In this document: piece by piece, positions 33,448 to 40,422 of the stretch
How the letters are laid out: each line of letters opens with the position of its first letter
Numbering within the stretch: position 1 is the first letter of the stretch
DNA from: an uncultured Bacteroidales bacterium
GTDB taxonomy: Bacteria; Bacteroidota; Bacteroidia; Bacteroidales; UBA10428
Length of the DNA stretch: 64,000 nucleotides
Direction: 5' to 3'
Assembly: GCA_964615995.1 (NCBI GenBank)
Contig: CAZTSR010000003.1
Location: 64,327 to 128,326, forward strand
Program-made: the position numbers and the translations under genes
The notes under the pieces: generated by a model
What the model saw: the letters and a program-made list of their open reading frames with translations, nothing else
Database searches by the model: none
What the model was told of the DNA's origin: nothing

Positions 33448-34857
33448 TTGAATCTCAATATCATGAACAGAAAATTACTTGCCTTAATCCTTTGTTTTCT
33501 GTGCCCCTTTTCTTTTTTTACCCTGAATGCACAGGAAAAAAACCTGGTAATCAATCCGGGTTTTGAAAAGTTCGAAAATTGCCCTACGGATTATACGCCG
33601 GAGAACCTTACACATAAGCTGGTTCCAGGCTGGACATATCCTACCCGGGCAACTCCTGATTACTTTAATCGCTGCAGCAAAGGATCGGATAAAGTAGGTG
33701 TACCCAGGAATTTTGCCGGAGAAAGTGAGGCGCATGGTGGTGATGGGTATGTAGGTGCAATCCTGAGCGGAACAGAAGAAAGTTACAGGGAATATATTCA
33801 GGGAACACTTGGAGTGCCTTTAATAAAAGGAAACCAGTATTGCATAAAATTCTATTATAAACTGGCTTCTTATTCACGGTTTGCCGTGGATCAGATGAGT
33901 TTGTATTTCAGCGACGTTGAAATAAAAAATGACGTGAATGTGAATTTGAATTATGTTCCGCAAATTACCAATAAAGTAGGATTATTCCTTGATAATATTG
34001 ATGCTTGGGAAGAATTTTGTACGGTATATACCGCAAAAGGCAATGAGCGCTTTTTTATCATGGGCAACTTTAAAAATTACGACAATACCAACTATGTCGT
34101 AACGGATAAAAATGTTGTAAACATGCGTAATAAGGCTTATGCCTATTATTATTTTGATGATATTTCCATTTCGCCCATTGAAAATTGCCTGACTTGTCCC
34201 TGTGTTTTACATGATTTTGAAAGCCGGGTTATTGAGACACATTATACAGGTGGCCAGGATCAGCAAACGGGGAAAGTTACCCGCATTATCAATGATGGAA
34301 GGATTAAAATCGGGGTATTGGGTGGAACGCAGCCTTATACCATTACATGGAATAACAAAATGTCGGGAGCTGAACTTAAAAACCTGCCTGCCGGCACCTA
34401 TATTTATCAGGCGCATGATCAGTTTAACTGCCGGTCTTCTGATACAGTGGTTTTTATTGAGCCTGTTATTGTTAAAGATGATTTTCTGGAGGGACTCAAA
34501 GCCATTGATGAAGGTTCTGCCATTGTTCTGGAGAACATTTTCTTTGAATTCAATAAAACCGGATTGTTACCGGAATCTTTTGCGGAACTGAATAAAGTAG
34601 TGCAGTTTATGCTTGAAGAAAACATCAAAATGATTGAAATCGGCGGGCATACGGATAATGAGGGCAGTGATTCCTATAATCAGAAATTATCGGAAGGACG
34701 CGCTGCATCTGTTGTTAATTATCTGGCCTCGCAGGGAATCGGAGCAGATCGTATGAAATCAGTTGGATACGGTGAAAGTCGTCCGATTGACACCAATAAA
34801 ACAGAGGAAGGGCGGGCTCAAAACCGCAGGGTTGAGTTTACACTGATTAAGAAATAA
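33448..34857 (+). CDS. OmpA-family protein (N-terminal beta-sandwich-like region + C-terminal OmpA domain)
   Basis: 469 aa with a signal peptide. C-terminal GGHTDNEGSDSYNQKLSEGRA...RRVEF peptidoglycan-binding motif. Confidence 0.88.
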   Translation: MNLNIMNRKLLALILCFLCPFSFFTLNAQEKNLVINPGFEKFENCPTDYTPENLTHKLVPGWTYPTRATPDYFNRCSKGSDKVGVPRNFAGESEAHGGDGYVGAILSGTEESYREYIQGTLGVPLIKGNQYCIKFYYKLASYSRFAVDQMSLYFSDVEIKNDVNVNLNYVPQITNKVGLFLDNIDAWEEFCTVYTAKGNERFFIMGNFKNYDNTNYVVTDKNVVNMRNKAYAYYYFDDISISPIENCLTCPCVLHDFESRVIETHYTGGQDQQTGKVTRIINDGRIKIGVLGGTQPYTITWNNKMSGAELKNLPAGTYIYQAHDQFNCRSSDTVVFIEPVIVKDDFLEGLKAIDEGSAIVLENIFFEFNKTGLLPESFAELNKVVQFMLEENIKMIEIGGHTDNEGSDSYNQKLSEGRAASVVNYLASQGIGADRMKSVGYGESRPIDTNKTEEGRAQNRRVEFTLIKK

Positions 34858-34873
34858 CCCTTATACTTTCAAT

Positions 34874-36859
34874 ATGAAACAGATAAAATTACGGTGCGCT
34901 TTCATAATACTTACGGTGTTTTTAAGTAATGCATATTTAAGTGCACAAAATGCAAAAAGAGGGTTTAAGCTACTTGAAAAGTCGGATTTTCCCAAAGCTT
35001 ATGAATTATTTACCAATGTATTGAATGAAAATAAAGAGGATGGTGCGTCTTTATTAGGAAAGATGCTTGTCCAGGCTGATACCAACAGTACTTATTTTGA
35101 TTTAATTGAAGCCTGGAAAACAGCTGTAGCACTGCAACCTTTGGTGGATAAACTGACGCCTGAAGAACAGGAATATATCGGAGAATATTTCTATAATACA
35201 GAAGTACGGCATATCAGCCGGCCTGTAAAAAAGAAAATCGAATATGCCATTGAAACGGTTGACAACAAGTTAATCAAACATATAAGGGAAGAGAACAACC
35301 TGAATCTGGTTTACAAGGTACTTGAGGAGTTTCCTGACTACAAATACTATGACAACGTTATGCATATCCGCAATCAACTGGAATTCCGAAAATATGAAAA
35401 ACAGAATACGCTCGAAGGATATATGGAATTTCTGAGGAAGTTTCCGGAAGCTGCCCAGGTAGATAAGGCGATCCGCTATCGGAATAAACTTGCTTTTGAA
35501 ATGGCAGCTCAAACAAATACCGTTCAGTCCTATAAAGATTTTGTCCGTCAATACCCGGAGGCCATTGAAACAAATGCTGCAATTAAGAAATTATATGCTG
35601 CTGCTTTTCAGGATGCTAAAAGTAAGAATTCTGTTCAGGCTATGGATCAGTTTATCCAGGAATACCCGGAGGCCTTGGAAATATCAGAAGCCAGGCAGAT
35701 TCAAAAGAAACTGTTATATGAATATGCCCGGAAAATCCAGACGCTTCAGGCCTACAATGAATTTATCAGGAGGTACCCTGAGGGACAGTTTTATATCGAT
35801 ATTTTTAATTTGAAGTCGCAGGACAATGGAAGCCGGTTTTTGCAAAGCCACCCGTTTCCCACACAAAATATTCAATGGGCAAGAAGCTTCGAAGAAGAAG
35901 AAAATGACGGACTCAATGCCTGTTTAGCAGTGGATACCAACAATGCCTATATTGTAGGAGGAACTGTTTTTCGCACGGACACAGCATCAACGGATGCCTG
36001 GATTATTAAGGTAAACGCCGATGGAAAAATGCTATGGAATAAATACGTGGGCGAAGGATTTAATGATGAATTGAATCTTCTTCAGGTTGGCCCTCAGAAT
36101 GATATTATCGGAGCGGGATATACCTGGCTGGGAACAGACAGTTCATCCCGTGAATCCTGGATTTTTAAACTGGGTACTCATGGAGAGAAAATCTGGACCA
36201 GGACGTTGGGAAAAATGCATGTTAACAGCATGATCATCGCATCGACCGGAAACATATATCTTGGTGGATATCTGATCAATGACTCACTGGATCGCTTATA
36301 TTCAATTGTTGTTCTGAATCCCTCAGGTAAGAGGCTATGGGGCAGGACATATACCGGAAAGGGAGAAATAACCAAAATATCCGAATGCCCCGATCGGAAT
36401 ATGGTATTGACAGGAACACAGTGGCGTGCAAAAATTGATCCAAAGGGTTATCTGCTCTGGGAATCACCATTCCAGGAGTCAGACAGTATATCCGGATCTA
36501 TTGTCCTCCCTAAAGGCGAGATTTGCTATTTTGGAATGAGAGGAAACAAGCATCTGATTATTAAAACTACAGCAGACAATAAGACGGTGTTTGAAAAAGA
36601 ATTGCCACTGCCGGAAATTTCTTCGGAAATCCTTTCCATCATCCAGGGGGCATCGAATCAAATTATTCTGCTCATGTCATTTGAGAGCCATCAGTCTTTG
36701 AACTGGGTGAATATACAAACAGGAGCGCTCTTATCCTCATCAAGAATGCCTGCCGGAATTCAGGTGGTTCAGATTGTCAGGGATTTAAACAATAATCTGA
36801 TCCTTCAGGCTTGCAACGGGGAAATTGTGATCATGAAAAACAACGGAACTTCATTCTGA
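34874..36859 (+). CDS. exported protein with tandem 37-aa helical Y-x2-F-x3-YPE repeats and C-terminal beta-propeller-like (SBBP-type) repeats
   Basis: 661 aa. FLRKFPEA, FVRQYPEA, FIQEYPEA and FIRRYPEG recur about 111 nt apart. The C-terminal half has repeated ...GG..-..D.W..K....G...W units. Confidence 0.75.
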   Translation: MKQIKLRCAFIILTVFLSNAYLSAQNAKRGFKLLEKSDFPKAYELFTNVLNENKEDGASLLGKMLVQADTNSTYFDLIEAWKTAVALQPLVDKLTPEEQEYIGEYFYNTEVRHISRPVKKKIEYAIETVDNKLIKHIREENNLNLVYKVLEEFPDYKYYDNVMHIRNQLEFRKYEKQNTLEGYMEFLRKFPEAAQVDKAIRYRNKLAFEMAAQTNTVQSYKDFVRQYPEAIETNAAIKKLYAAAFQDAKSKNSVQAMDQFIQEYPEALEISEARQIQKKLLYEYARKIQTLQAYNEFIRRYPEGQFYIDIFNLKSQDNGSRFLQSHPFPTQNIQWARSFEEEENDGLNACLAVDTNNAYIVGGTVFRTDTASTDAWIIKVNADGKMLWNKYVGEGFNDELNLLQVGPQNDIIGAGYTWLGTDSSSRESWIFKLGTHGEKIWTRTLGKMHVNSMIIASTGNIYLGGYLINDSLDRLYSIVVLNPSGKRLWGRTYTGKGEITKISECPDRNMVLTGTQWRAKIDPKGYLLWESPFQESDSISGSIVLPKGEICYFGMRGNKHLIIKTTADNKTVFEKELPLPEISSEILSIIQGASNQIILLMSFESHQSLNWVNIQTGALLSSSRMPAGIQVVQIVRDLNNNLILQACNGEIVIMKNNGTSF

Positions 36860-36986: not shown

Positions 36987-37811
36987 GTGAAAAAGGATCA
37001 TGTAAAACAACCCAGCTCGGAGCTTTTTCTCAGGCGACATGATATAGAGATGTCTGAGAGTCTTAAATATGCCAGTTATATTCAACAGGCTATATTTCCT
37101 TCGATAAAGGATATTACGCGTCTATTACCTGATAACTTTCTTTTCTATCAACCCCGGGAAGTCGTCAGTGGCGATTTTTATTATGTATCACGAAGGAATG
37201 ATTTGCTTTTTATAGCCATAGCTGATTGTACGGGACATGGAGTTCCTGGTGCTTTCATGAGCATTCTCGGCATTACTTTTATTAATGAGATCATTTCTCA
37301 CGGTACAGCAGTTCAGGCAGGCGTTATTTTGAACCGGCTGCGTGAGCATGTCATGGAGGCGTTATGCCAGACCGGTGAAGATTTAGAACGAAAAGATGGT
37401 ATGGATCTGGCATTATGCATTATAGATTCTAAAACGAACAAAATGAGTTTCGCCGGTGCTTTCAATCCCTTATACATTATTCGCAATCAGAATTTAATTG
37501 AATATGCCGGCGATATGATGCCAGTTGGCATAGGTGCAGAAGAAGAAAAAAGCTTTACAACGCATTTGGTGCAGTTAATGCCTGAAGATGCAGTTTACTT
37601 ATTTACTGACGGCTTTGTGGATCAATTTGGAGGTCCTCACTGCAAAAAGTTTAAATACAAACCATTCAGGGATTTATTGATTCACATAAGCGCATTGCCC
37701 ATGCAGGACCAGAAATCCGTATTACAGAAAACTTTTAATGACTGGAAAGGAAACCTGCAACAACTAGATGACGTATTAGTGTTTGGTTTTCGTTATCAAG
37801 TTGATTTATAG
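36987..37811 (+). CDS. stand-alone PP2C/SpoIIE-family protein phosphatase domain protein
   Basis: 274 aa. Contains SGDFYYV, ADCTGHGVPGAFMS and TDGFVDQFGG motifs. The track start is a GTG and an ATG alternative is at 37050. There is no sensor domain. Confidence 0.8.
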   Translation: MKKDHVKQPSSELFLRRHDIEMSESLKYASYIQQAIFPSIKDITRLLPDNFLFYQPREVVSGDFYYVSRRNDLLFIAIADCTGHGVPGAFMSILGITFINEIISHGTAVQAGVILNRLREHVMEALCQTGEDLERKDGMDLALCIIDSKTNKMSFAGAFNPLYIIRNQNLIEYAGDMMPVGIGAEEEKSFTTHLVQLMPEDAVYLFTDGFVDQFGGPHCKKFKYKPFRDLLIHISALPMQDQKSVLQKTFNDWKGNLQQLDDVLVFGFRYQVDL

Positions 37812-37839
37812 TACCCTTCACCCAAAACACTCCGCATTA

Positions 37840-40167
37840 ATGAAAATCAGTGCATTTCAAATCAGGAATTACCGCTCCATCATAAATTCCGGTAAATGTT
37901 ACCTCTCACCAGATTCCATTACGGCGCTGATAGGTCAGAATGAATCGGGTAAAACCTCTGTCCTTGAGGCCCTTAAGAGCTTTTATGATGGTCAGATCAC
38001 AGACGACATTTTAAGAAGCGATATGACCTTCCCTGAAATAACCTGTTCCTTCATTCTGGATGAAGACAAAGAACTGGGAGAATATATTGATATGATGCAT
38101 ATACCGGAAGAACTTCATACGGTAGTTTCAACCAAATCAGAATTTTCTCTGACACGAAAATGGTCGGATTCAAAAACAAATACAATAAGCCTTGCTGAAC
38201 CTGAAATTATTGATTATTATAATGAACAGAAAAATAATGCATTATTAACATCAAATAAAATAAACACTTTAATACCTGTTTTGGTGCAGGATGTTGAAAA
38301 TGCAACACGGGATCTTCAATTCACTGAAAAAAAGACAGATCAATTAAGAAGCGAAGCAAACATGTTGCATAGCCGGGTTGAAGAACTGAAAAGACACATC
38401 AGCAAAGCTAAAAATCCGGACGACCGCATCTCAAATGAACAGGAATTTGAAAAAGCACAGAATGATTTACTGACAGCTGAAAACAATTTCAGAGAATCTT
38501 TAAAAGAATTGGAAGAACGGAAAATCAATCTGCAAACTTCTGCTGATAAATTAACCAACTGCAAATCTTTTCTTTCGCTCTCAGATACGGTAAATGTCCT
38601 TCAAAAAGAAATCGAAGCACATGTTGTTTTGATTCACCAGACTGAACATGAGCATGAAACATGCAAAAATGATAGACAGATACGCAGTTTATCGAAACAA
38701 TTGGAGCAAATGCGGTCCCGTCAGGAATATCTGATGAATGAATCAAAACGATTGTCGCATCATCTTTCAATCCAGCTCAGGATTGCTGAAAAAATGGTTG
38801 CAGGAACTCTTTTTAAGGAAGCTGAAGCTGAATCGATTAAAGAGCAGGAACGGGAATCAGCTTATGCTACCCTGGAGGAACTTGGAAATTCTGTTTTTAA
38901 ACACATTCCCATGTTTGAATTTTTCGAAGATTTCGGAAGTCTTTTGCCCAATAAAATTGACTTGGATGATCTACTGAACGAAAATATTCATGCTGAGGGT
39001 TATAAGGCTGCCAGGAACTTTCTAAGCATTGCCGGATTAAACGCCGACTTTTTCAGAGAAAAAAACCACCGTATTTTAAAACAGAAAATAGAAAACCTCA
39101 ATTCGGAAATTACGATTGATTTCCAGGATTATTGGCGTCAAAGTGTAGGTAAGGATGACAAAATCCGCATAAACTTTGAACTGGAACATTATGATAACTC
39201 ACAGCCCGATAAAAGCGGAAAGCCTTATCTGGAGTTTTGGATTAAGGATAAGCAGGAAAGACTATATCCCAAGCAACGGAGTAGGGGCGTAAGGTGGTTT
39301 TTATCCTTTTACCTTGAGTTGAAGGCGACAGCAAAGGAAAAATCAGAAGACAGGGTGATGCTGATTGACGAACCAGGATTAAGTTTGCACGCCCGTGCAC
39401 AGGAAGATGTATTAAAGGTTTTTGAAGACTTGCGACAGAATCTTCAGATTATTTATTGTACACACTCACCAAATCTCATTGATTCTAAAAAGCTATACCG
39501 GATTATAGCTGTACAGCGCGAACGGGATACTGATGAAAAGAGTGAAACGATCATACTGGATGCGCGGAGACTCAACGCTGCTTCGGCGGATACGCTTTCT
39601 CCCATATACGCTTTAATGGGCACGCAACTGAATGAAAGGCAGTTTATTTTTCCCAAAGACAATCTGATTGTTGAAGATTCTGTTACTTTTCATTATCTGG
39701 AAGCTTTCTGCAAATTAATACACCCGGAACAAAATTTTCATTTCATACCTGCCTCCGGAAATGATAGCGTCCCCATCATGGCTAACTTGTTTTTTGGTTG
39801 GAAAATTGAATTCCGCATACTTCTGATGGATAATTCGCATAACAGAGCACTCATTGAACATCTGAGGTCGTCGATGTTTTTTCCTGAGGACCGGACGGCA
39901 GAATCCAGAGTTCAAATAATGCCGGATTTTCCTGCAATTGAAGACCTTTTTTCTACAATTGACTTTAAGCGCTTTGTATTGCAACAACGCGTCGGAATTA
40001 CGATGCGAAATTCGGAATATATTGAAATGAACAAGCTTTCCAGAATGATCCTTGCAAGTGATTTTTGTACCAAACTTCAAAAAGAAGAAATCCGCTTTAG
40101 TGATTTTGATGAGGAAACCCGTGAAAATTTGAGCAAATTTTTTACGCTGATTCAAAAAAATTCATGA
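37840..40167 (+). CDS. ABC/OLD-type AAA ATPase with long coiled-coil insert and C-terminal Toprim-like region
   Basis: The start is chosen at MKISAFQIRNYRSI (ATG 37840). Walker A GQNESGKT (about 37930). Coiled coil about 38290-38950. Signature-like RSRGVRWFLSF. Walker B VMLIDEPGLSLH (about 39355). H-loop YCTHSP. The tail has NLIVEDSV (39661) and ILLMDNS. Confidence 0.8.
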   Translation: MKISAFQIRNYRSIINSGKCYLSPDSITALIGQNESGKTSVLEALKSFYDGQITDDILRSDMTFPEITCSFILDEDKELGEYIDMMHIPEELHTVVSTKSEFSLTRKWSDSKTNTISLAEPEIIDYYNEQKNNALLTSNKINTLIPVLVQDVENATRDLQFTEKKTDQLRSEANMLHSRVEELKRHISKAKNPDDRISNEQEFEKAQNDLLTAENNFRESLKELEERKINLQTSADKLTNCKSFLSLSDTVNVLQKEIEAHVVLIHQTEHEHETCKNDRQIRSLSKQLEQMRSRQEYLMNESKRLSHHLSIQLRIAEKMVAGTLFKEAEAESIKEQERESAYATLEELGNSVFKHIPMFEFFEDFGSLLPNKIDLDDLLNENIHAEGYKAARNFLSIAGLNADFFREKNHRILKQKIENLNSEITIDFQDYWRQSVGKDDKIRINFELEHYDNSQPDKSGKPYLEFWIKDKQERLYPKQRSRGVRWFLSFYLELKATAKEKSEDRVMLIDEPGLSLHARAQEDVLKVFEDLRQNLQIIYCTHSPNLIDSKKLYRIIAVQRERDTDEKSETIILDARRLNAASADTLSPIYALMGTQLNERQFIFPKDNLIVEDSVTFHYLEAFCKLIHPEQNFHFIPASGNDSVPIMANLFFGWKIEFRILLMDNSHNRALIEHLRSSMFFPEDRTAESRVQIMPDFPAIEDLFSTIDFKRFVLQQRVGITMRNSEYIEMNKLSRMILASDFCTKLQKEEIRFSDFDEETRENLSKFFTLIQKNS

Positions 40168-40184
40168 TTTTTTTCGATAATTAA

Positions 40185-40208
40185 ATAACTTATTAATCAA
40201 TAAGTTAT
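40185..40208. terminator. AT-rich perfect hairpin ATAACTTATT-AATC-AATAAGTTAT after the ATPase gene
   Basis: Perfect 10-bp stem read from the sequence. There is no GC content or clear T-run, so terminator function is uncertain. Confidence 0.3.
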
Positions 40209-40422
40209 AGCGTTATTAACAATTTTATAGCTGCTTCTATTCAAATAATTTTGACGAACATGCAACTTTCGTTGACGAAATTGCGTATATTTGATATGAA
40301 TTAAAAAACAAACAGAAAATCTAATACCATGGCAACATTACTGCTTATTTTGGTACCGGCAATTTCCCTTTTTGTTTTAGGATATCTGGTAATTACAGCT
40401 CCTGAATACAGAGAGTTCTAAA

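Follow-up and report, generated by a model that had tools for sequence, protein, structure and literature searches.

Whether an ATPase with a nuclease-like tail, encoded directly behind a phosphatase gene, belongs to an anti-phage system or to a module with a cellular role is the question raised by a locus in a 64,000-nucleotide (nt) stretch of contig CAZTSR010000003.1 (assembly GCA_964615995.1, positions 64,327–128,326, forward strand) of an uncultured Bacteroidales bacterium; this whole stretch is referred to below as the window. The locus consists of two genes, the first of which encodes a 274-amino-acid (aa) protein phosphatase of the SpoIIE/PP2C type, and the second a 775-aa ATPase with an ATP-binding cassette (ABC) head, a coiled-coil insert and a C-terminal tail. 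The original prediction, made from the sequence alone, had read the ATPase as a stand-alone OLD-like or a fused PARIS-like anti-phage gene. According to the comparative analysis presented here, the pair is best described, at the level of sequence, as a new branch of the OLD family that is defined by its PP2C partner and is degenerate in the nuclease site. With respect to function, we infer that the module is more likely a cellular ATP-driven sensor–phosphatase than a classical defence nuclease.

Conservation of the Gene Pair

In a scan of species-representative genomes, relatives of the ATPase were found in at least 488 genomes, and the 80 best of them were full-length proteins of uncultured Bacteroidales or Bacteroidota with 43–75% identity. 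In the first set of loci, a SpoIIE gene in the same orientation directly preceded the ATPase gene in 80 of 83 cases; in the other three, at most 95 nt of sequence was available 5′ of the ATPase gene, so that adjacency could not be assessed. To these were added 80 metagenomic loci that a profile of more distant relatives had yielded, and linkage was counted for those unique proteins that had 900 nt or more of sequence upstream. Among the proteins that had lost the DxD motif of the Toprim active site, 85 were linked to SpoIIE and one was unlinked; among those with intact E and DxD motifs, the numbers were 18 and 17, respectively. The adjacency was preserved with one exception in about 115 distinct proteins, and the gaps between the two genes were typically 1–70 nt. 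On a neighbour-joining tree, all SpoIIE-linked proteins were grouped into one clade, sister to the unlinked “LEE...DDD” proteins. A sensor-less PP2C, active by the look of its motifs, is thus the obligate neighbour of the ATPase throughout a single clade, and the earlier suggestion that the phosphatase may be a partner of the ATPase, with conservation of the adjacency as its check, was borne out. The sole nested member of the clade without SpoIIE (L102, 4822–5000) lacks the gene cleanly, its ATPase gene lying 180 nt behind the preceding gene, and it retains the intact E/DDD/ED motif set.

These data bear on the simplest explanation, namely, that the genes are functionally unrelated and stand side by side by chance. 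It agrees with the lack of a known family-level link between them and with the fact that no paper on the pair was found in literature searches. However, the adjacency, the orientation and the short gap are kept across sub-clades in which both flanks are entirely different, and the pairwise distances of the ATPases correlate with those of their SpoIIE neighbours (r = 0.90); chance proximity is effectively refuted by these conservation data, and its probability is negligible.

Within the clade, the motifs of the ATPase and the catalytic motifs of the PP2C are invariant, unlike DxD. Twelve positions conserved in at least 95% of the linked proteins differ in the unlinked ones; they are located in the ATPase C-lobe (F404, K414, Q415, E418, L420, Y451, E465, K469, R474 and R482) and in the tail (R717 and G719) and could represent a candidate partner interface.

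Origin of the C-Terminal Domain

The tail of the 775-aa ATPase contains the motifs NLIVEDSV (aa 608–615), IPASGNDSV (aa 636–644) and ILLMDNS (aa 660–666). Modelled separately, it was predicted to form a beta-alpha-beta-alpha-beta-alpha-alpha-beta core with additional helices (predicted local distance difference test (pLDDT) 87.9, predicted template modelling score (pTM) 0.85). The direct searches were negative: the isolated tail matched nothing in Pfam and PADLOC at E-values up to 10, DUF4435 included; its profile gave nothing credible against the PDB sequences, the single match, to Tetrahymena p82, being spurious; and a Foldseek comparison of the model with PDB and BFVD gave nothing below E = 0.06. 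The top template modelling (TM) scores of the tail model, in the range of 0.30–0.42, belonged to Toprim proteins, namely, GajA (0.38–0.42, highest and non-significant), Thermus OLD and T7 primase. Taken by itself, the structure search would have led to a wrong rejection of the Toprim assignment.

The affiliation of the tail was established through a chain of profiles. A search of 1.84 billion proteins with the tail profile yielded 634 representative proteins, many of which were ATPase-plus-tail proteins of about 600 aa, matched by the tail profile with an E-value of about 1e-19. Some of the distant relatives bear the OLD-like_TOPRIM domain (PF20469) exactly at the tail-profile match (P0269: E-value = 1.6e-6, 29 bits against a cutoff of 23.2 bits), and a profile of the ~600-aa relatives matched the crystal structure of Thermus scotoductus OLD (6p74) with an E-value of 2.9e-19 in an alignment extending through the Toprim. 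Comparison in hhalign of the tails of the window type with the ~600-aa relatives gave a probability of 99.94% (E-value = 4.7e-37, 176 columns). Because of this transitive chain, and despite the negative direct searches, the tail is assigned to a divergent OLD-type Toprim and not to the DUF4435/AriB type, and the 775-aa ATPase is homologous over its full length to the OLD-type ATPase–Toprim proteins. Consequently, the part of the original prediction that described an ABC ATPase of the OLD family, with an inserted coiled coil and a Toprim-derived domain at the C-terminus, is supported, with the profile and structure searches that it had proposed for the tail failing when direct (Pfam, PADLOC, PDB and Foldseek) and placing the tail in Toprim when transitive. 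Its “fused PARIS-like” variant was not supported, since a DUF4435/AriB signal was absent and the tail aligned with the OLD-type Toprim. The tail was also considered as a STAS-like phospho-acceptor; this was rejected, as the structural search gave no STAS match and IPASG was unconserved.

Catalytic Residues

In Thermus OLD, the ligands of metal A are E377, D431 and D433, and those of metal B are D381, S478 and E480; mutations of these ligands cripple or abolish cleavage, and the equivalent residues of P2 Old are required in vivo (PMC7049728). The segment “vvvEGisD” of the relatives aligned with “LLVEGYGD” of the Thermus protein, and “lDkd” aligned with “HDED”. With the invariant G653-W654 and F658 as anchors, the residues were transferred to the 775-aa ATPase without gaps in the register. 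At the metal-A site, the glutamate is kept (E377 = E612), and both aspartates are lost (D431 = M663, D433 = N665), so that M663-D664-N665 stands in place of DxD. At the metal-B site, the glutamate is likewise kept (E480 = E701, followed by D702), the aspartate is lost (D381 = T616), and the serine is changed (S478 = A699). With a single metal-A ligand left of three and one ligand of metal B gone, the 775-aa ATPase lacks the complete catalytic set of the OLD family; the Toprim fold is retained, without both DxD aspartates and the D381 equivalent.

The position of E612 was variable across orthologues (E, Q, K, N, P, S and G), and in separate lineages of the clade, DxD was replaced by MDN, FDN, FDT, GNH, DES, EGD, DGD, FGN, FEN, IGN and LGE. 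The motif was lost in most of the linked clade, the full E/DDD/ED set being retained by a minority. The acidic Toprim motifs had been described beforehand as partly degenerate, which was correct and understated the extent of the loss, given the missing DxD aspartates and D381 equivalent and the glutamate that varies across the clade.

Phosphatase, ATPase Head and Coiled-Coil Insert

The coordinates of the features are given in Table 1. The phosphatase gene is annotated from a GTG codon; an ATG at 37050 may be the true start, because conservation begins near residue 24. SpoIIE was the sole Pfam domain of the protein (E-value = 4.8e-20, aa 74–269, 72.8 bits against a cutoff of 25 bits), in agreement with the predicted absence of a sensor domain. 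The NCBIfam SiaA equivalog (NF038263) covered only the C-terminal catalytic part (E-value = 2.2e-51, profile positions 410–657 of 658), and the score was below the equivalog cutoff (175 against 700 bits). The motifs SGDFY, DCTGHGVPGA, KDGxD, DGxxDQFGG and QxDD, including the metal-binding Asp motifs, were kept across 78 orthologues. The open reading frame (ORF) of the ATPase spans 37783–40167, and its ATG at 37840 gives a product that aligns with all homologues from residue 1. The predicted positions of both genes and the 28-nt distance between them were confirmed from the ORF list and the sequence; the two genes form an operon, the guanine–cytosine (GC) content of which is the same as that of the surrounding sequence.

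Table 1. Features of the PP2C–ATPase locus (positions in the window).
Feature	Position	Strand	Remarks
274-aa PP2C gene	36987–37811	+	Sensor-less SpoIIE/PP2C (RsbU/SiaA-type) Ser/Thr phosphatase; GTG start
775-aa ATPase gene	37840–40167	+	OLD-family ABC ATPase with expanded coiled-coil insert and degenerate Toprim tail
Walker A/P-loop GQNESGKT, aa 32–39	37933–37956	+	Invariant in 40 orthologues; kept in unlinked relatives too
Coiled-coil insert, aa 121–353	38200–38898	+	AlphaFold helices
ATPase C-lobe, aa 357–560	38908–39519	+	Near-invariant; long runs of invariant columns
Signature-like RSRGVRWFLSF, aa 480–490	39277–39309	+	Within C-lobe
Walker B VMLIDEPGLSLH, aa 506–517	39355–39390	+	Within C-lobe
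H-loop YCTHSP, aa 539–544	39454–39471	+	Within C-lobe
OLD-type Toprim-derived C-terminal domain, aa 601–775	39640–40164	+	Profile chain to PF20469/Thermus OLD
Perfect 10-bp AT-rich inverted repeat ATAACTTATT/AATAAGTTAT, 4-nt loop	40185–40208	+	18 nt past the ATPase stop codon
30-codon ORF, hydrophobic peptide MATLLLILVPAISLFVLGYLVITAPEYREF	40329–40421	+	Conserved by tblastn

In Pfam, the 775-aa ATPase was assigned to AAA_15 (E-value = 8.4e-25) and AAA_21 (1.1e-17), and its best match among the PDB sequences was AriA (5.8e-7). The PADLOC check that had been proposed for both proteins gave a divided result: the ATPase matched the generic AriA model best (4.6e-24), Old with 4.8e-23, and also PtuA and GajA, and the PP2C had no match at E-values up to 1. 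Hence no defence system catalogued in PADLOC is made up by the pair, as the ATPase matches generic ABC-ATPase models only and the phosphatase none. All the motifs that had been predicted, namely, Walker A, the signature-like motif, Walker B, the H-loop and those of the tail, are present in the translation. Residues K38, D510, E511 and H542 were invariant in orthologues, and S481, G483, D510, E511 and H542 were common to linked and unlinked relatives.

The sequence of the insert varied among orthologues. In the AlphaFold model, it formed helices at residues 121–189, 193–274, 278–320, 325–340 and 345–353, mostly with pLDDT above 90, which confirmed the heptad-rich insert that had been placed at about 38290–38950. 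The protein therefore has the ABC head with Walker A, Walker B and H-loop, as well as the helical insert within the ATPase domain, by which the OLD family is recognised. Over its full length, the AlphaFold model resembled the heads of SMC, Rad50 and JetC with their coiled coils, in addition to Thermus OLD, and SMC/Rad50 matches dominated the structure search. The most conserved stretch of the ATPase (aa 407–601, 39058–39642) had pLDDT below 50 in this model, whereas the variable coiled coil was modelled confidently; the stretch includes the signature, Walker B, the H-loop and the DTLSP linker, and its low values are likely due to a shallow alignment of low diversity.

The resemblance to SMC, Rad50 and JetC heads is in line with an explanation in which the ATPase is the working part, acting on DNA or chromatin without nucleolysis or with residual nicking, as in RecF–RecR, RecN, SbcC and Cran1, and is switched by the PP2C through dephosphorylation. 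Cran1, an archaeal OLD protein of class 5, associates with chromatin and has a link to the cell cycle, RecR is a catalytically inert Toprim partnered with an ABC ATPase, and Ser/Thr residues are present in the invariant linker ASxDTLSPIYxLMG (aa 581–594), which was modelled with low confidence. However, this linker is no less conserved where the relatives have no phosphatase, and it was therefore rejected as a phosphatase target; clade-specific conserved Ser/Thr residues were looked for and none was found; no kinase is linked to the pair; and phosphatases of the RsbU/SiaA type normally target small proteins of the STAS or SiaC type. An ATPase switched by its phosphatase neighbour is accordingly considered unlikely.

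Genomic Context and Distribution

In the window, the pair is flanked by genes for dihydroorotate dehydrogenase, an OmpA-family protein, an amino-acid permease and a DUF4197 protein; the earlier statement that it sits between unrelated genes of the housekeeping type thus held. Across the loci, the flanks were conserved block-wise within each sub-clade, one set consisting of pyrD, OmpA, TPR/beta-propeller, permease and DUF4197 genes, and others of SPOR and RlmN or of G6PD, 6PGL and a DnaQ-GIY-YIG protein. Neither integrases nor defence genes were found among the flanking genes of the pair across the examined loci. The ATPase distances correlated with those of the flanking genes as well (r = 0.62–0.93), with a similar mean divergence, and in more than 100 lineages at species level, the pair was syntenic with its housekeeping neighbours and diverged together with them. 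The pair looks vertically inherited.

Among mobile elements, only distant relatives were detected. IMG/VR contained five, none of them with SpoIIE, and those checked had E-G or E-E motifs; one weak partial match was found in GenBank phages; and the plasmid collection contained only relatives with identity of at most 32%, annotated as OLD-like. The phosphatase-linked pair itself was not found in the phage and plasmid collections. The unlinked relatives with an intact Toprim occupied other contexts: one was located between HsdM and HsdS/HsdR of a type I restriction–modification (RM) operon (L161, 2646–10235), another adjoined an N6_N4 DNA methylase gene (L095, 1147–2697), and further ones were near a resolvase or Schlafen-AlbA_2 gene. 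These are typical defence or conflict contexts, in contrast to those of the linked clade.

It is against this background that an immune role of the pair, against phages or by abortive infection, must be weighed, in which the OLD-like ATPase would sense infection, as in PARIS, Septu and Old, the PP2C would be either the effector, removing phosphate from host or phage proteins, or a safety regulator, and the system would have become fixed in its lineages. The ABC-ATPase sensor architecture and the ancestry of the family are associated with defence, as are the PADLOC models matched by the ATPase; the sister proteins occur in the type I RM operon, beside the methylase and resolvase genes, on viral contigs and on plasmids; some linked orthologues carry the full catalytic set; and class 1 OLD genes are known outside defence islands (PMC10568477). 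On the other hand, the PP2C is without a match in PADLOC, synteny and co-divergence of the pair with housekeeping genes extend over an identity range of 43–75%, no copy of meaningful identity is present in the phage and plasmid collections, and the nuclease site has decayed repeatedly with the ATPase and the PP2C strictly kept, which is unusual for a nuclease-based immune effector. Hence the claim that this is an anti-phage defence gene was not supported by the distribution; defence is no longer the favoured reading for the linked pair, and an immune role is regarded as doubtful.

Proposed Function

The favoured reading, to which we assign a probability of about 0.45, is that the operon represents a phosphatase-coupled, nuclease-degenerate OLD-family module with a cellular role in signalling or housekeeping, derived from an ancestral defence nuclease. 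Phosphatases of the RsbU/SpoIIE/SiaA group normally carry or bind a sensor. In the proposed model, the PP2C, having no N-terminal sensor domain of its own, would take its input from the ATPase, which would no longer be a two-metal nuclease and would act as an ATP-driven coiled-coil sensor or scaffold. The Toprim relic would be kept as a binding surface, possibly for a ligand, and ATP-driven engagement of the heads, possibly together with ligand at the relic, would gate the PP2C bound by the ATPase. The gated phosphatase would then dephosphorylate a small phospho-Ser/Thr protein encoded elsewhere, most plausibly a partner-switch protein of the SiaC or STAS type. The nuclease would be dispensable in such a module, which in this model explains the repeated decay of its site.

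Several points weigh against this proposal. That the ATPase binds the PP2C, which of the two controls the other and what the substrate would be are points of the model rather than observations. No SiaC-like ORF was found within the window, and no SiaC, STAS or kinase gene was found near the pair either there or in most loci, STAS proteins and kinases not having been sought genome-wide. The evidence for vertical inheritance consists of local synteny and distance correlations, and the nearest relatives of the family are associated with defence. A minority of linked orthologues has the complete E/DDD/ED set; therefore, the ancestral linked system was probably nuclease-competent. In the 775-aa ATPase itself, E612, D613, E701 and D702 remain, and a residual single-metal or nicking activity may be conceived.

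One sub-lineage (L074, L103, L106 and L108) differs in its surroundings. A 1121-aa sensor PP2C (Reg_prop, Y_Y_Y and SpoIIE domains) is encoded directly 5′ of the sensor-less SpoIIE gene and overlaps its start, and the ATPase gene is followed by a Peptidase_C26/GATase gene and then by a convergent gene for a SiaC-family phosphoprotein (PF09345, E-value = 6.8e-31; order as in L106, 333–8372). The SiaC neighbour is a weak hint toward a substrate of the SiaC type.

Relation to Known Systems

The classes of the OLD family are defined by genetic context; classes 1–4 are all antiviral, and class 5 is an archaeal cell-cycle factor. The pair fits none of them, since class 1 is solitary, class 2 has the GajB helicase, class 3 is associated with a retron, class 4 is the split AriA/AriB system and class 5, by its description, has a membrane partner in Sulfolobales. 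With the class 1 proteins (P2 Old and Thermus scotoductus OLD, 6p74), the 775-aa ATPase shares the organisation of a single polypeptide with an N-terminal ABC ATPase, a helical insert and a C-terminal OLD-type Toprim; profiles trace the homology, and the structural matches include Thermus OLD. However, its coiled-coil insert of ~230 aa is much longer than that in Thermus OLD or GajA, T, M and N stand in place of the residues D381, D431 and D433, and it is not solitary, having an obligate PP2C partner and a vertical rather than phage-borne distribution. Gabija (GajA/GajB, class 2) is similar in its OLD-family ATPase–Toprim, whereas no UvrD/PcrA-like helicase (GajB) was present in any locus examined here and the Toprim catalytic residues are lost. 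As to class 3, no reverse transcriptase was found among the called or clustered neighbours, and non-coding RNA was not searched for.

PARIS resembles the pair in its ATPase of the AAA_15 type, AriA being the best match in both PDB and PADLOC, and in the idea that a partner enzyme is under the control of an ATPase scaffold. It is, however, split into AriA and the DUF4435 Toprim nuclease AriB, whereas in the pair the ATPase and a Toprim of the OLD type are fused, the separate partner is a phosphatase and not a nuclease, and the context of mobile elements is absent. The similarity to Cran1 (class 5, Sulfolobales), drawn from its published description, lies in a taxon-restricted clade, vertical inheritance, a conserved operon with a non-defence partner and an apparent absence of antiviral function; in contrast, Cran1 is archaeal, retains a potent nickase activity and has a membrane protein as its partner instead of a PP2C. 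In the case of Cran1, vertical inheritance flagged a non-defence role, and a role in the cell cycle was then shown experimentally (PMC12796447). The same paper noted 11 uncharacterised OLD clades (PMC12796447), and the linked clade might be one of them.

The phosphatase belongs with the partner-switch PP2Cs SiaA, RsbU and SpoIIE by the subfamily of its catalytic domain and by the DCTGHG, DG and DD motifs, to which the SiaC gene adjacent in one sub-lineage may be added. It differs in the absence of an N-terminal sensor or membrane domain and in an operon that contains an OLD-family ATPase instead of a SiaB-type kinase or a SiaC/STAS substrate. An analogy, from general knowledge, can also be drawn with RecF–RecR, where an SMC-like ABC ATPase is combined with an inert Toprim as a binding module; those are separate proteins without a coiled-coil insert or a phosphatase, and no close sequence relationship is known.

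In the literature searches, no paper coupling SpoIIE/PP2C with OLD-family proteins was found; the 2020 classification of ABC ATPases lay outside their reach, and a prior mention there is possible. The pair would constitute a further, bacterial OLD class defined by an obligate PP2C partner. We propose only tentatively that an ATPase-gated PP2C is an undescribed input device for bacterial Ser/Thr phospho-signalling or, if the system is immune, a defence acting through dephosphorylation, the linked proteins forming in either case a sixth, PP2C-linked OLD class. The clade can be viewed as a natural experiment in which the nuclease site has undergone repeated decay with the ATPase and the phosphatase remaining fixed, which argues that the sensor function of the ATPase is separable from the cutting of nucleic acids. 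This bears on the repurposing of ABC-ATPase immune sensors for cellular roles and on the way in which input reaches PP2C phosphatases that have no sensor. Among uncultured Bacteroidales from the environment, the module is widespread; it represents a sizeable unannotated family, the members of which bear no label other than “AAA family ATPase” or “predicted OLD endonuclease”.

Adjacent Genes and the Downstream Spacer

Upstream of the pair, the window contains genes for a 469-aa OmpA-family protein with an SprB-repeat match and a 661-aa, weakly beta-propeller-like protein (33448–36859, forward strand), 17 nt apart. Such OmpA and TPR/beta-propeller genes were located directly 5′ of the SpoIIE and ATPase genes in 48 of the 83 loci, all of the closer sub-clade, and were absent in the more distant loci; they were therefore rejected as obligatory parts of the module and may form a separate conserved cell-envelope operon.

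The spacer downstream of the pair (40168–40328) has a GC content of 24%, as expected from the AT-rich spacer that had been noted there, and is not featureless: it contains the inverted repeat and is followed by the conserved 30-codon ORF (Table 1). The hairpin may be a terminator, although a simple scan for consensus terminators did not call it. The 30-codon ORF is single-copy in the window and ends 1 nt before the convergent permease gene. Sequences related to it at 52–100% identity (tblastn) were found 3′ of the ATPase gene, on the same strand, in about 45 related loci, including those with a different next gene; whether it belongs to the module is uncertain. In several other loci (e.g., L036, 6730–6653), the interval from the TPR protein gene to SpoIIE contains similar “...APEY(I/V)E” micro-ORFs, which are encoded on the opposite strand.

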